Shown here piece after piece: positions 24,180 through 64,000 of a stretch of 64,000 bases of DNA (position 1 is the stretch's first letter; each line of letters opens with the position of its first letter). The stretch is from contig BPJG01000001.1 of NCBI GenBank assembly GCA_026004495.1, positions 560,527 to 624,526 on the forward strand, in the 5' to 3' direction. Origin of the DNA: Candidatus Parcubacteria bacterium (lineage in GTDB: Bacteria; Patescibacteriota; Minisyncoccia; UBA6257; HR35). The position numbers and the translations under genes were made by a program. Below the pieces are notes generated by a model that saw only the letters and a program-made list of their open reading frames with translations, was not told the DNA's origin and did not search any database.

Positions 24180-24201
24180 AAATATTTTTATATAAAATTT
24201 T

Positions 24202-24272
24202 GCCCGCGTAGCTTAATGGAAAAGCATCTCCGTCCTAAGGAGAGGATAGGGGTTCGATTCCCTTCGCGGGTA
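24202..24272 (+). tRNA. tRNA-Arg (anticodon CCU)
   Basis: Cloverleaf with acceptor GCCCGCG/CGCGGGU (a G1-U72 wobble), anticodon stem UCUCC/GGAGA with loop GUCCUAA, and T-arm AGGGGUUCGAUUCCCUU. Confidence 0.8.
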
Positions 24273-25569
24273 TATTAATTAATATCTTAATAAATATTCT
24301 TAAAAAAATCAAAATATATTTTTATCTTAGTTAAATTTATTTTTTTTAATTATTTTCAAAATTATTTGACCTAATTTTTAAATATAGCATAATTTAATTC
24401 TCTTGTCAATTAATTATTTTAATAATTAAAATAATATTCAAAAGGTAAATTAAATATTTATGTTTTTTTATTTATTTTATTATTTTTATAATAAAAAATT
24501 CAAATATCTTTTACTTAAAATAAAATATTTTTAATTGATTTGGGGAAGATATTAATTTCTGAAAAATTAACCGCAATAGATATTAAATTTATTCAAGAAA
24601 TTTTTAAAGAAGAAGTAAATAAAAATTTATTTTTGACCGATAAATTAGATAATTAACAATTTCAGTTTTAAAAGAATTTCAAAAAAATATAATATAAATC
24701 AATTAGGCAAAATTGATCTCGATATAATTAAGCTTATTTTAAGTATTAGTGGCTTAAATGGTATAAATTTATCTCATAATAAATTATTCTTTACTTCAAA
24801 ACAAGATAATTTATTATCAATTAAAAAATAATCAAATAAGAAAAGGATAATTAATAATAAATTGGAAAATCTACTCCATCTTACCATTATTATTCTTTCT
24901 GATAAAGTTACACGACATTAAATTTTAAATTAATAATTATGGAGCAAAGAGTAAAAATCATTTGAATTAAGGTTTTAAGAGATTAAAAATTTAATGGAAT
25001 ACAAGTATATCCAATTTTCTTATCTTTGTCTTACAACCTATATATATTTTGATATACTAATGAGATTCAAGTACTTCAAAATAAATTTTAATTTTAAATT
25101 AGCTTCTTTGCCTAAGGTAGGTAATTTAACCCTTGATTTAGATAGATTAAACATTAATAAAGATTATCAATTGGATTTAGGATGCATCATTTTTTAAGTT
25201 ATCTTAAAGATATTTCTAATGAAAAATGGTAATAAGTTTGTATTAAGCTTAATAAACGGTAATAATAATATTGATGATCAAGATAATTTAAATATTTTTT
25301 TTATTTAATTATATTGCTAATATTTAGTAAGGGTAATATTAACTATGATTTAAATTTTAATTCACTAATTAATGATAAAGATTTAAATATAATTCTTAAA
25401 AATTTTGACACAAAGAGATACTTAAAAGTAATAATATATACAATAAAATAACTTAAAAGTATAAAATTTTTTATTTTGAAAATAACTCTTTATTATTTTA
25501 TCCACTGTTTATCCTCAACTTTAAGATATTTGACAAAAATTTTTTTTGGAGTAAAAATATTTGATTAAG

Positions 25570-29462: not shown

Positions 29463-31168
29463 TTTGTTATTAATAAAAACTTTAATTAATGATAAATTTT
29501 TGATAATAATATTAATTTTTAATATGAAAAATCTTAATATATTCAAAAGCCTATGTTAAGACTAAACTTTTATATTTAGTTATTTCCTGCCTAATAAGTT
29601 TATTTATTATTAAAATTATTTTTGCCAGCAAATTTTAAATGATTATTATTTTATGTTGATGAATATATAAACTTAATTTAATTGGTAGATAATAACAAAT
29701 GATCTTTTTATTTAATTTCCTTTTCTAATAATAATAAAATTCATATTACTAATTCTTATCTCAATAACACTCGCAAGGAGGGTGATAATCCTATTTTTAT
29801 TCAATCAACTAGTTAAGCACGAACCAATTTTAATATTTCTCTTAGAAATCATAGATCAGCAACGGAAATTTATAAATTTATTACTTCCTATGAGTATGAT
29901 AATCCATCATCATCATTAGTTTTTTAAAGTCTAAAGATGATATTAGATTAATAATTAAAAGAATTATAAGTAATTCTGCTTTAACTTCTAAAATACTTAA
30001 ATTTAATGAAAGATCTAATTATATTTATATTTCTCCTAATCAAATTTTAACTCGAGTTTATAGATGTGATCAAGGGATTCGCTTAATTTTAAAAAAAATT
30101 AATAACCCACCAAATATTAATTAAGTCAATTTTGAATATGATATTCCTAATAGGAAATTTTATTATTAATATTTAGGAACTATTAAGCCTTCTTTATTTT
30201 AAAATAATTAGTTAAAGAAAGCAGACAAACAATATTTGAATTTTTAACTATGACAAATAGAGTTGATGATTCATTTATCATTCCTGTAGGTTTAAATCTT
30301 ATCCCTCTTCAATAAAGATATAATTTAGAATTATTAGTTAAAAATTTAGATAACACTCAGAAATCAAAAATAATTGGCCTTACAAACCGAAATTACATTT
30401 TTAATAATCTTCAATTAAAAATATTTTTAGTCAAAAATATTTCTTCTTAAATCGCAGAAATATGGGTTTTAACAAGTAGAATTTCTGATTTATTAAGTGA
30501 GATTAATAATAGATTTATTATTAATTATGGCACTGAAACCAATCCCATTTATGGGAATAAATTTTTAGTTAATAAATGATGTAGATTTGAAAATATTATC
30601 TATTACTGTGCCAACATCGTTTGATGAATTTACCTCCGGTCATTAAATATAATTTTTATGTTACCCTAATTAATGATGCTAATTTAATTACGACTTCAAC
30701 TATTTATAATTTTACTACCTTAGGTTCAACAACGCCTATAGTTAATAATCTTCAAGTAAACTATAATTCACCTCGAGACAATATTTATGCTTAATAATTA
30801 AAGGAAGGGTAATAGATAAAAATACCCTCTGAGATTTGAAGCTCGATTAAATAAGCAGGAAATTCCAATAAGATTTTTTAATAATCTATTTGAATTCAAT
30901 CTAAACAATATCTAAGTTACAACGACTTCTGAATTAGGGATTATAATTCGAAATAATTTAAACCCTGAAAGAGTTCTTAATTTTTTTTTACCTAATTTAT
31001 CTCGATAGAAATTTAATTTCTAAAATTATATTTTTTATATTTTTATTAAAATTTAAATAAAATTTATAAAAATTTCTATTTTATTTTTTAAAATTACTAA
31101 AATATTTTACATAAATATATATATAAATAAATTTTTAAAAAATATTTATTCTTATTTAATTTATTATT

Positions 31169-32317
31169 TTATTCAATTTCTTCTATTACTATTTCATCTC
31201 CTAAAATATAGGCAATTATAGCTTTATTGTCTTTGGTAAAAGTAAAATCAACCTTATCATAAGGACCATATATTTTATCATTTATTTGAACATAGTATTT
31301 ATTATTTTCTCTATAAGACCATCCATATTTTGAACTATCAGGAGAGAATAATTTTGAACTATCAGGAGAGAATATTACGCCATAAATATTATCATAAGGC
31401 CCATAAATTTTATCATTTAGTTGAATATAGTATTTATTATCTTTTATATATTTCCATCCATATTTTGAACCATCAGGTGAGAATGTTATGTCATAAAAAT
31501 AATCATAAGGACCATAATCATAAGGCCCATATATTTTATCATTTAGTTGAATATAGTATTTATTATCTTTTATATAATACCATCCATATTTTGAACCATC
31601 AGGTGAGAATATTACGCCATAAACATAATCATCATAAGGCCCATAGATTTTATCATTTACTTGAACATACCATTTATCATCTTTTTTATATCTCCATCCA
31701 TATTTTGAACTATCAATAGAGAATGTTATAAAATCAAAATAATCATAAGGCCCATATATTTTATCATTTAGTTGAACATAGTATTGATTATCTTTTTTAT
31801 AAGTTAAGTATACATACTTACCTCTTGTTTCTTCTAATCTTACTCCTGTAATAGACTCTCTATCTAACAATAATTTATATTTTCTTACTCTTCCTTCTTC
31901 TTTCTTAGTTTCTTCTTTCTTAGTTTCCAATTTTATATCTTTACCTTTTATAGGAAATACTTTATTATCTTTTTTCCTTTTAAATGTTAATAATCTAAGT
32001 GTATCCTTATTTATTAATCTTCCTCTAAATTCTCCTGTATTATTATTATTTTCATCATATTCTTTAAGGATAACAGTTTTAGTCTTAAGATTAATCTCTC
32101 CTTCTAATTTTAACCATTTTCCTACTTTATCATATTTATATCTTCATTCTATTTTATTACTATTATCTTTTTGAGATAATTCAAGAGTAATAGGATAATT
32201 AGATATTTTTAGATTATAAGTATTAGTAATTTTATTAGTAGTTATTGTTTGAGCATTAGAAAATAAGGGAGAAAGAATAAGAGAGATAAGGATTAAAGAG
32301 ATTATTAGTTTTTTCAT
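31169..32317 (-). pseudogene. secreted Tyr/Gly-rich tandem-repeat protein whose frame passes through a single in-frame TGA at 32144-32146 (pseudogene, sequencing error or recoding site)
   Basis: ATG at 32317 encodes a 57-aa signal peptide and N-terminus (MKKLIISLILISLILSPLFSNAQ...). An in-frame TGA follows, and the frame then stays open into the track ORF 31169-31930 (TTG start). That ORF encodes about 38-aa repeats: KYGW-YIKDNKYYIQLNDKIYGPYD...FSPDGS. Confidence 0.5.
31250..31800 (-). repeat. intragenic tandem DNA repeats (about 110-120 nt units) encoding the YG beta-repeat modules
   Basis: Recurring near-identical blocks, for example ccataaattttatcatttagttgaa(t/c)atagtatttattatcttt...tccatccatattttgaac. 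Confidence 0.6.
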
Positions 32318-61970: not shown

Positions 61971-62013
61971 CTAATTTTTTATAAAAATATTTATATTATT
62001 TTATAATTATACT

Positions 62014-64000
62014 ATGGACGGTAATTTTAACCTCGAAAAGTTACATGAAGAAGCATTAATAGTAAATGAAGAGGTTAATAAAAGAGCTTGGAAAGGACCG
62101 CAAGATTCTCTTTCAAAAATTGCTGAAGAAATAATAAAGAATTTGGAAAATCTGGAAAAAGAAAAATCTCAAGATCAAATATCACTATTAAAAGTAAAAC
62201 CTATTTTTGGATTACCAACTGAAATAAAAGAAGATTTTTATAAATTTTATGAAGCAGTTGATAACTTAGATAATAATAAAATAAAATATTATGAAGAAAT
62301 AAAAGAAAATTTTTTTAATAAACTTATTAAATTAGATGAAATTATTAAAAAAGGAAATGGGGAATTGATAAAAAAGAAAAAACAAATAGAAATATTACAA
62401 GAAAGTCTTTTTAAATTCGATCCATTTAGCTTTATCTTTAAACATCATAAATATTTTGATTTTGATAAGGAATTCTCTGTTTTAAAAAATTTTTCAAGTT
62501 TAACCAGCCATAAATTTAAATTTATTTTTTTAAAAAATTATAGAAATCAAATTAATCAAGAGATAGAGAAAAAAATTGAGGAATATCGAAAGCAAGAAAT
62601 AGAAATTAAAAAAAATTTAGTTGAAGAGTTTAATAAAACTAAACAAGATATTTTAGAATTTATTCAAAATATTCAAAAAAATTTAAATAATTTAAGTATA
62701 TTTTTAAGCAATCCTGAAAAAGAAATTATATCTTTTTTAACCGCTACCCTACCAATAGCTTTGGCAATTAAGGAATTTGGACTTAAAAATTATTCTCAAC
62801 TTGTAGAAGTTTTTAATAGTTTAAAAGATAATTATGAAATACTTAAGGATAATCATAAGTTAATAATAGATTCCTTAGATGAACTTAATTGTCGAATTAC
62901 AAGTATATTTGAAGATGGAAGTAGAGTTATAAATTCTTTTTTGAAAGATTGCTTAGAACATGACATAGGATTATCTGTAATATTTAATATGTTAACCACT
63001 TATAGAAAAGGATTTAATATACCAATGGTGTATGGCGAGACAGAACTTAAACAAAGTAATCTTTCAAATTTATCTTCTGAAGAAATAAATAAAATTTTTG
63101 GATTTCCTTTATCTCTTGGTCGAATATATGAAATTATGGGATACCCTACAGAAGAAGAATTAAATGATTTTGAAATAAAGATAAAAGAAATTAGAAATAA
63201 ATTTAGTAAAATATTAGATTTGCCAGAAGAATCTTTATTAAAAAATTTATTAAGTAAAATTAATAAAATTAGAAAAAAATTAGAAATCTTTAGAGATTTT
63301 GAAACCAATCTTAGACAATCACTCTTAACTCATGCTACATTTTGGCAAGGTTTTTTAAAAATTTTAGAAGAACGAAAATTAGCATCACAAACTTCTCAGC
63401 AAGAAACAGGTAAGGAACCTACTAAGGGGCCTACTATTTTAGTTAGGGGTGGTGCTATAAATACAGGAGTTGAACAATATAAGCCTGGTTTATGGTTTGG
63501 TATAAATGGAGTTGAACCTTATGGTGCCTTTGTATTTATTTTTCCCACTGCTTTTGTTATAAGAGGCAAAAAATTTGTTATTCTTCCTAGTACAAAAGCA
63601 GACAGAGAAGGTAGATTTCTTGAAATGGGAGTTTACAGCGAAGGATATAGCCTCGAAAGTCCTAAGGGTATTGAAATTAGTATTAATGATTCCCTTATAT
63701 TATGCCCTCAATTATTAGAAACAGAAGTTAGAGATGAATTAAAAAAAATAGGCTATAATGATGAATGGATAAGTGAGCATATAGTTTTTTATGAGATTTC
63801 AGAATATTATATAGATAAAATTTGGAGTTGTATTCCAATTCCAATAGAAGATTTATCTCATAAAAAATATACCGACGAAGAAAAAATAGAAAAAATTAAA
63901 CAAGTACTTATGTGTTCGGACCAAAAAGAATATATAGAAATGGGAGGTAATAAAATTAATGGTATTTTAGCTGAAATAGCTTCTGGAGTCTTAAAAACTT
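62014..64000 (+). CDS. large hypothetical protein, 3'-truncated by the window edge (at least 662 aa)
   Basis: Uninterrupted reading frame from ATG 62014 to the window end (MDGNFNLEKLHEEALIVNEEVNKRAWKGP...). It is absent from the ORF track, presumably because there is no stop inside the window. Lys/Glu/Asn-rich with no recognised motifs. Confidence 0.5.
   Translation, partial: MDGNFNLEKLHEEALIVNEEVNKRAWKGPQDSLSKIAEEIIKNLENLEKEKSQDQISLLKVKPIFGLPTEIKEDFYKFYEAVDNLDNNKIKYYEEIKENFFNKLIKLDEIIKKGNGELIKKKKQIEILQESLFKFDPFSFIFKHHKYFDFDKEFSVLKNFSSLTSHKFKFIFLKNYRNQINQEIEKKIEEYRKQEIEIKKNLVEEFNKTKQDILEFIQNIQKNLNNLSIFLSNPEKEIISFLTATLPIALAIKEFGLKNYSQLVEVFNSLKDNYEILKDNHKLIIDSLDELNCRITSIFEDGSRVINSFLKDCLEHDIGLSVIFNMLTTYRKGFNIPMVYGETELKQSNLSNLSSEEINKIFGFPLSLGRIYEIMGYPTEEELNDFEIKIKEIRNKFSKILDLPEESLLKNLLSKINKIRKKLEIFRDFETNLRQSLLTHATFWQGFLKILEERKLASQTSQQETGKEPTKGPTILVRGGAINTGVEQYKPGLWFGINGVEPYGAFVFIFPTAFVIRGKKFVILPSTKADREGRFLEMGVYSEGYSLESPKGIEISINDSLILCPQLLETEVRDELKKIGYNDEWISEHIVFYEISEYYIDKIWSCIPIPIEDLSHKKYTDEEKIEKIKQVLMCSDQKEYIEMGGNKINGILAEIASGVLKT

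Follow-up and report, generated by a model that had tools for sequence, protein, structure and literature searches.

The locus described here raises the question of whether a single in-frame TGA in the gene of a secreted Tyr/Gly-rich repeat protein ends translation, leaving a pseudogene, or is read through to give the full-length product. It lies in the window, the stretch of 64,000 nucleotides that was analysed as a whole, which belongs to a 634,165-bp contig of the MAG Candidatus Parcubacteria bacterium KatS3mg094 (mg094, Patescibacteria). Exact protein look-ups in the window returned GroEL (GIW66068), GroES (GIW66067) and SecA (GIW66063) of this genome. The mg094 genome comes from hot-spring sediment at 52 degrees C, was assembled with metaFlye from PacBio Sequel II HiFi reads (>Q20) and was annotated with DFAST/Prodigal (Kato et al. 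2022, PMC9671151).

The locus is probably a young pseudogene, which arose by a recent nonsense mutation in the secreted repeat-protein gene and whose lesion is carried in three paralogs. Several observations count against this reading, and they are given below together with the alternatives that they favor.

Organization of the disrupted gene

The gene is encoded on the minus strand and contains the following features:

31169..32317, minus strand: whole disrupted gene, 382 codon positions and the terminal TAA
32249..32317, minus strand: Sec-type signal peptide MKKLIISLILISLILSPLFSNAQ, codons 1-23, read from the sequence, with probable cleavage after SNA
32144..32317, minus strand: 57-aa ORF annotated as GIW66066.1, "hypothetical protein" (exact look-up), the N-terminus cut short by the TGA
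32144..32146, minus strand: in-frame TGA, codon 58, in place of an invariant Gly GGA (15 homologous N-modules compared)
31928..32218, minus strand: N-terminal module of ~97 aa, split by the TGA (alignments A2 and A4; all-beta with 8 strands in the model of homolog P0128)
31895..31927, minus strand: Lys/Glu linker with a perfect 15-nt in-frame tandem duplication, ETKKE ETKKE (TRF 2.2 copies, 100% match)
31250..31802, minus strand: tandem array of ~4.5 repeats (TRF periods of 114 and 126 nt, 38-42 aa)
31499..31531, minus strand: 15-nt in-frame tandem duplication YGPYD YGPYD in repeat 3 (TRF 2.2 copies, 94% match)
31327..31374, minus strand: perfect 24-nt in-frame tandem duplication FSPDSSKL FSPDSSKY in repeat 4 (TRF 2.0 copies, 100% match)
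31172..31249, minus strand: conserved C-terminal cap DKVDFTFTKDNKAIIAYILGDEIVIEEIE, followed by TAA 31169-31171 (alignment A1)

From the N- to the C-terminus the product would thus consist of the signal peptide, an N-terminal beta domain, the Lys/Glu linker, about five Tyr/Gly/Trp repeats of 38–42 aa and a C-terminal cap strand, and the whole gene aligns end to end with the homologs P0001-P0005. The signal peptide that the first-pass annotation had placed at ATG 32317 of the minus strand is confirmed by the sequence. The ATG at 32317-32315 opens MKKLIISLILISLILSPLFSNA, with Q following the cleavage site, and this leader shows the n-, h- and c-regions of a Sec signal peptide and an A-x-A-like SNA site, without a lipobox Cys. 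Equivalent hydrophobic leaders are present in the homologs.

The TGA at 32144-32146 follows after 57 codons, as had been noted from the first inspection. Past it, the same frame remains open for 324 sense codons up to the TAA at 31171-31169; the open frame described earlier therefore stands, while its given length of 325 codons includes the stop. The first possible restart past the TGA is TTG 31930, at codon 130, and no ATG or GTG restart was found in frame past the TGA. The Tyr/Gly tandem repeats of about 38 aa, likewise described before, are recovered by TRF in ~4.5 copies, with the array consensus FSPDGSKYGWxYxKDNKYYIQLNDKIYGPYD. In the C-terminal cap (F358...E382) the columns invariant in alignment A1 are F-T-F-T, N, I, Y, E, V-I-E and the last E; K362 and D363 are not invariant.

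The 382 codons of the window copy contain no second stop and no frameshift, which counts against a pseudogene. Random frames in the window DNA close after roughly 11 codons, and an open frame of 324 codons in DNA of 22–25% GC is far beyond chance, which indicates that the downstream part is, or very recently was, coding. If the gene is a pseudogene, the lack of further lesions points to its youth rather than to function. Each of the three recent tandem duplications inside the gene has a length divisible by three (15, 15 and 24 nt). This would be expected by chance in about 1 case in 27 if there were no selection on the frame, and it counts against a pseudogene.

Conservation of the codon at the TGA site

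The homologs of the read-through protein are 535–627 aa long, cover 88–94% of it and come from JGI and ENA hot-spring metagenomes. Those that are continuous through the TGA site include P0001-P0005, P0017, P0020 and P0030, and for 13 homologs tblastn gives a single HSP that crosses the TGA without leaving the frame. The N-module was compared with 15 related modules, namely the two copies in L001 and those of L002 to L014. Gly occupies the TGA position in all 15, the codon is GGA in each of the 14 for which DNA was read, and no stop codon was found at this site in any of the related modules (0/15 TGA). In alignment A4, Gly is likewise present in all homologs covering the site (12 of the 14 rows), and exactly one column separates the two pieces of the window protein, where the window has ...NKIE, the stop and RYKYDKVGKWLKLEG... 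and the homologs have ...DKIKGRYMYDKVGKWLKLEG...

The closest relative, P0030/L014 (GCA_023255765.1), has an N-domain that is 63% identical, carries GGA at the site and reads AAAATAGAAGGAAAATAT where the window reads AAAATAGAATGAAGATAT. The distant homolog P0130 also keeps the Gly. Since GGA is found in 14 related modules, including that of the closest relative, the ancestral codon is GGA and the event is a single G-to-T transversion. The presence of continuous homologs with a sense codon, Gly GGA, at this position supports the option of a fresh nonsense mutation or pseudogene, one of several that had been put forward for this locus.

There are 250 one-step routes to a stop codon in the gene, so a nonsense hit as such is unremarkable. 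The route from GGA to TGA makes up about 5% of the one-step nonsense routes (12/251, with the mutated codon counted), and its occurrence counts against a pseudogene.

Predicted structure of the two parts

The Pfam search of the window protein gave no family at threshold, and the N-module was without a match. The PD40 family (PF07676) reached E = 0.35 and 11.3 bits against a cut-off of 20.9, and WD40 reached E = 0.078 and 14 bits against a cut-off of 27. Remote sequence homologs carry PF07676 PD40, PF26549 and PF26550. The AF2 model of the 324 aa that follow the TGA has a pLDDT of 86 and is all-beta. Foldseek relates this model to the propellers of TolB, S9-peptidases and WD40 proteins with a probability of 1.0, and the matches are weak in superposition, with a TM-score of ~0.3 (TMq 0.23–0.39 among the matches listed) and an rmsd >9 A. 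The confidence of the model is low at the duplication in repeat 3, where a block of 10 residues has a mean pLDDT of 69, and in the duplication of repeat 4, with values under 50 at model residues 257-260. The repeats may thus resemble blades of the beta-propeller type; the beta-propeller initially proposed for this protein gains weak support from the all-beta model and the Foldseek matches, against which stand the low TM-scores.

In a profile search, 3,770 representative clusters scored E <= 0.001. Among the best 150 of the 3,770, almost every match falls on the repeats of the profile and a handful fall on the N-domain. The NCBIfam family TmcD_fam was considered and rejected, since its score of 68.8 bits lies far below the cut-off of 440 and reflects similarity of the repeats only.

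For the N-module, the AF2 model of homolog P0128 (pLDDT 84.6) shows an N-terminal signal helix followed by an 8-stranded beta domain, and a Foldseek search of this domain against the PDB revealed no significant relative (best E = 0.34). The invariant Gly corresponds in the model to G55 of P0128, which is placed inside the third strand (E52-59). With this Gly in the middle of a strand of a compact eight-stranded domain, the 57-aa product, made of the signal peptide and 34 residues, would not be a foldable unit and most likely cannot fold as a domain.

The position of the TGA bears directly on the possibility that the locus comprises two genuine genes, one for a small secreted peptide of 57 aa and the other for a cytoplasmic repeat protein started at TTG 31930. 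The 57-aa ORF is annotated as a CDS and a TTG start is available at codon 130. Moreover, SD motifs are nearly absent from the window (2 of 59 genes), so that the missing SD motif is no argument against a start at TTG 31930. Such an arrangement is nevertheless highly improbable, because the TGA cuts one conserved domain in the middle of a strand and the 72 codons from the TGA to the TTG are conserved with the homologs, yet would be untranslated. The alignments of the 13 homologs pass through the split without a change of frame, and a separate repeat protein would be left without a signal peptide. None of these homologs starts at the TTG position, a case which had been raised in the first-pass annotation as one that would speak against a disrupted gene; a few of the N-module homologs are themselves fragments or pseudogenes. 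In addition, the ORF after the TGA, with either TTG start, is absent from the deposited proteins, as established by exact look-up.

TGA as a stop codon in the window

The use of stop codons and the occurrence of internal TGA were counted in the 59 other window ORFs of at least 90 aa that were taken as genes, with the target gene excluded. These end with TAA in 48 cases, with TAG in 6 and with TGA in 5. The genes ended by TGA encode a DUF763 protein, a solute-binding protein, an ORF without a Pfam match, a TrbC-like pilin (below the Pfam cut-off) and MraZ. Three of the five (DUF763, MraZ and the TrbC-like pilin) reach the last position of their Pfam profile and stop soon after it, and the solute-binding protein has a partial profile match only. 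At four of the five terminal TGAs the stop overlaps the next start as ATGA. TGA is thus an ordinary stop in this genome, in agreement with the earlier remark on the ATGA junctions, and translation of the target should stop after 57 residues.

None of the 59 other genes contains an internal TGA. When only TAA and TAG are taken as stops, the target is the sole real gene that TGA splits into two substantial parts (59 + 324 codons), which bears out the earlier description of a single event in the window. The long ORFs of the window contain 901 Gly codons among ~17,000 codons, and all of these are GGN. With genetic code 11, the ORFs of at least 90 aa, the target being counted whole, cover 84% of the window. 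The median distance to a back-up stop is 5 codons after genes terminated by TGA and 6 after those terminated by TAA, which gives no signal of a leaky TGA. A scan for promoters and terminators of the window found 25 promoter-like sites, where 21.4 were expected, and no terminators.

No tRNA with a UCA anticodon is present among the 7 tRNAs that ARAGORN finds in the window. The Rfam matches at gathering score are the same 7 tRNAs, and nothing resembling a SECIS element was among them. The release-factor motif GGQ[HNS][VI]N was not found in the six-frame translation of the window. Downstream of secA lies a stretch of 1.7 kb without ORFs, in which neither a decayed prfB nor another gene was detected by Pfam in six frames, by Rfam or by tblastn with the family. 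Folding of 101 nt at the UGA gave an MFE of -11.8 kcal/mol with z = -1.2, and the only stem starts ~20 nt past the UGA.

These results have to be set against the view that the UGA is tolerated or decoded, either through misreading by a near-cognate tRNA or with Gly supplied by a suppressor tRNA(UCA), the situation of genetic code 25. Some full-length secreted protein would in that case still come from the three paralogs that carry the lesion, and the codon would perhaps keep its expression low. The site has the context UGA-A, and stronger terminator contexts than this exist in E. coli. The TGA falls exactly on the invariant GGA Gly, the 324 codons downstream are intact, and the three recent duplications are in frame. 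Furthermore, the organism is a member of the Patescibacteria, the phylum in which UGA-to-Gly recoding arose (PMC13293708), and as this recoding evolved once there, the finding of the TGA on an invariant Gly counts against a pseudogene.

Decoding or tolerance of the UGA is, however, unlikely. Five of the 59 other genes are truly terminated by TGA, which does not occur a second time in frame in the window codons counted above, back-up stops are no closer after TGA, and the window contains no tRNA(UCA) and no stable structure downstream of the TGA. In addition, the reported UGA-to-Gly recoding is restricted to Gracilibacteria/JAEDAM01 (PMC13293708). Of the site-specific read-through or recoding suggested at first, what stands is the position of the TGA on an invariant Gly and its presence in three copies, while the lack of any relative with a stop at the site speaks against it. 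The stronger version of this proposal, in which the UGA at codon 58 is decoded by efficient read-through or as Gly by a dedicated or suppressor tRNA and the three paralogs are functional, has a slim chance of being correct.

Insertion of selenocysteine, another of the options first considered, could explain why a UGA stands in frame in an ORF that is intact apart from it, and is effectively refuted. The homologs have Gly at the site and never Cys or Sec, and there is neither a SECIS-like hairpin of significance past the UGA nor a tRNA(UCA) in the window. The position, which in the homolog model lies in a beta strand of a secreted non-enzymatic domain, is a structural one, and this too speaks against selenocysteine.

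Three copies of the truncated reading frame

Three annotated ORFs of the same contig, GIW65636.1, GIW65934.1 and GIW66066.1, have this identical truncated sequence of 57 aa (exact look-up). GIW65636 is locus _155 and GIW66066, the window copy, is locus _585, while the spacing of the accessions would put GIW65934 near locus _453, and the three loci are dispersed in the genome. GIW66066.1 and its two identical siblings are best regarded as the truncated N-termini of a disrupted gene and hence as gene-calling artefacts, not real 57-aa proteins. That each of the three annotated N-termini stops at the same TGA counts against a pseudogene, because the loss of every copy would be odd for a gene family that is retained in relatives; the sharing of the TGA by dispersed copies is correspondingly in favor of UGA decoding.

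An intact N-module from the KatS3mg094 genome was not found in the protein searches. These searches are imperfect: the single-sequence N-domain query matched nothing, which looks like a word-index limitation, and the profile search found only 7 proteins. Among the NCBI matches in the repeat-protein family none comes from the KatS3mg094 contig.

The three copies are also relevant to the question of whether the stop is present in the DNA. An artefact of sequencing, consensus or strain mixture would mean that the codon of the dominant population is GGA and that the gene is intact. The TGA is one base away from the ancestral codon in a gene that is otherwise perfect, and the polishing of a metagenome consensus can go wrong where modules are repeated. 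In PacBio HiFi data, substitution errors are rare and homopolymer indels dominate, and the TGA site lies outside any homopolymer. The assembly was made by metaFlye from HiFi CCS reads above Q20, and the identical 57-aa ORF, and hence the same stop, is found at three separate loci. The TGA is therefore most likely real DNA and an artefact is quite improbable; the base-call error considered in the first-pass annotation is accordingly weakened.

The N-module in relatives and the origin of the shared lesion

Across the relatives the N-module is fused to unrelated C-termini, which include Tyr/Gly repeats, another all-beta domain (L007), a Cys-rich domain (P0030) and a 1002-aa protein (L001). The family homogenizes its N-module between paralogs and often decays to pseudogenes. 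Two paralogs in L001, which lie 7 kb from each other, have a 225-nt tract in common at 100% identity. The tract spans the mature N-domain, and the signal peptides and the downstream parts on either side of it are diverged. This provides a direct precedent for one lesion common to paralogs.

Decay is seen in several relatives. Compared with L007, L004 has a frameshift through the change of an A6 run to A5, and the frames beyond it are scrambled. L012 (an NCBI MAG) and L013 (a Logan contig) contain two in-frame TAA codons and a frameshift relative to P0017, and these same lesions are preceded by two distinct signal peptides; P0133 is a version with less decay. Shared lesions and frequent pseudogenization are thus normal for this family. 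The existence of unambiguous pseudogenes with lesions common to copies in relatives also argues against decoding of the UGA in mg094.

The formation of a young pseudogene may then be envisaged as follows. A single G-to-T change in the part that encodes strand 3 of the N-domain would have converted the invariant GGA to TGA, so that translation would end after 57 residues with the signal peptide and a 34-residue fragment, and the 324 downstream codons would be left untranslated. This one lesion may have spread to three loci by duplication of the N-module or by gene conversion between paralogs, and the three copies would share it for that reason. Full-length protein would presumably not be made.

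Comparison with known systems

The locus resembles nonsense pseudogenes in the surface-protein families of reduced genomes, in which a one-base stop falls in a codon conserved among orthologs and the rest of the gene is intact. It also shares with nonsense pseudogenes of surface-protein families the multiple paralogs, the recombining 5' module and the decayed copies in relatives. It differs from ordinary nonsense pseudogenes in that all three known copies of the N-module carry the same stop, with none seen intact, and in that the window copy is free of further lesions.

Genetic code 25 of the Gracilibacteria / Absconditabacteria (SR1) / JAEDAM01 has in common with the present case the Patescibacteria, the low GC content and UGA at a conserved Gly. 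However, here a single site is affected rather than many per gene, UGA still terminates 5 of 59 genes, and no tRNA-Gly(UCA) is found in the window. Leaky UGA read-through in bacteria is similar in the UGA followed by A and in the intact downstream frame that would restore the full length. In contrast to that system, here no stop is conserved in relatives and there is no stimulatory structure.

The repeat part is comparable to the PD40/TolB-like (WD40-like) propeller proteins, with which it shares repeats of 38–42 aa, their 'FSPDGS' start and, apparently, four beta strands per unit. Unlike those proteins, the window protein remains below the Pfam threshold, superposes with a TM-score of ~0.3 and has the distinctive signature KYGWxYxKDNKYYIQxNDKxYGPYD.

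As the evidence stands, the locus is mainly a point of annotation. If the UGA were read, it would be an ambiguous codon, with the two meanings Gly and stop, in an organism related to the lineages that use genetic code 25. This would amount to a site-restricted or incipient UGA-to-Gly assignment outside Gracilibacteria/JAEDAM01 and to a living, testable intermediate of stop-codon capture and reassignment.

The comparison also outlines an uncharacterized family in hot-spring Patescibacteria, with a signal peptide, a homogenized 8-strand N-module, interchangeable C-terminal domains and frequent decay, a pattern which fits rapidly turning-over cell-surface or host-interaction proteins of episymbionts. 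The label of a phase-variable factor, which had been attached to this protein, does not suit the lesion itself, as it is a substitution and not a slippage tract. The relatives nonetheless show a fast-decaying, recombining family.

Probable sequence exchange, and decay, within the repeat-protein family

Two paralogs of the family are found on L001, a related hot-spring contig:
L001 2969-5977, first member of the paralog pair
L001 10001-11704, second member of the paralog pair

The two genes have in common a 225-nt tract, 100% identical and coding for the mature N-domain (the all-beta module after the signal peptide); on either side of it, the signal peptides have diverged and the C-termini are unrelated. 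This pattern is suggestive of gene conversion or of a recombination cassette. The 45 nt around the Gly codon, which occupies the site of the in-frame TGA of the target gene, are identical or nearly so across ten N-modules from several metagenomes, and the same is true of the ~300 nt of DNA compared between the loci L004 and L007.

Three relatives are clear pseudogenes:
L004 4971-5700, poly-A frameshift
L012 (NCBI MAG) 409-1050, two in-frame TAA codons and a frameshift
L013 (Logan contig) 672-1228, two in-frame TAA codons and a frameshift

In L012 and L013, two different signal peptides precede identical lesions, and the homolog P0133 represents a less decayed allele.

The target gene itself contains three tandem duplications, all perfect or near-perfect and all preserving the reading frame:
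31895-31927, 15 nt
31499-31531, 15 nt, in the repeat array
31327-31374, 24 nt, in the repeat array

The two duplications in the repeat array map to low-confidence loops of the AF2 model of the region after the TGA.

Source and neighbors of the relatives

The proteins P0017 and P0133 carry bacterial-type signal peptides, and the NCBI MAGs they come from are labelled Aenigmatarchaeota and Nitrososphaerota. Their contigs are probably mis-binned, with the same low-GC hot-spring Patescibacteria as the true source.

On two related, low-GC contigs, a ParB-like gene and genes of the family adjoin a reverse-gyrase-like ORF of ~1170 amino acids, comprising DEAD/ResIII helicase, Toprim and Topoisom_bac domains:
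L001 11929-15444
L014 2349-5858

As a thermophily marker, reverse gyrase is notable in putative Patescibacteria.

Genomic setting of the target gene

Translation initiation in the window seems to be largely independent of Shine-Dalgarno sequences, a motif of this kind being present within 20 nt upstream of the start in only 2 of all 59 genes.

An ORF-poor stretch separates secA from the target gene:
29463-31168, 1.7 kb

Its longest ORF does not exceed 57 amino acids, while the rest of the genome is 84% coding. A six-frame search returned no Pfam match, and neither an Rfam family nor a remnant of the repeat-protein family was found in it. The stretch may represent a gene that has decayed completely, or non-coding DNA of an unusual kind. 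Two more gaps of over 1 kb lacking an ORF of at least 90 amino acids occur in the window (24180-25560 and 61971-62999), the former with a tRNA gene at its start:
24201-24273, tRNA-Arg(CCT)
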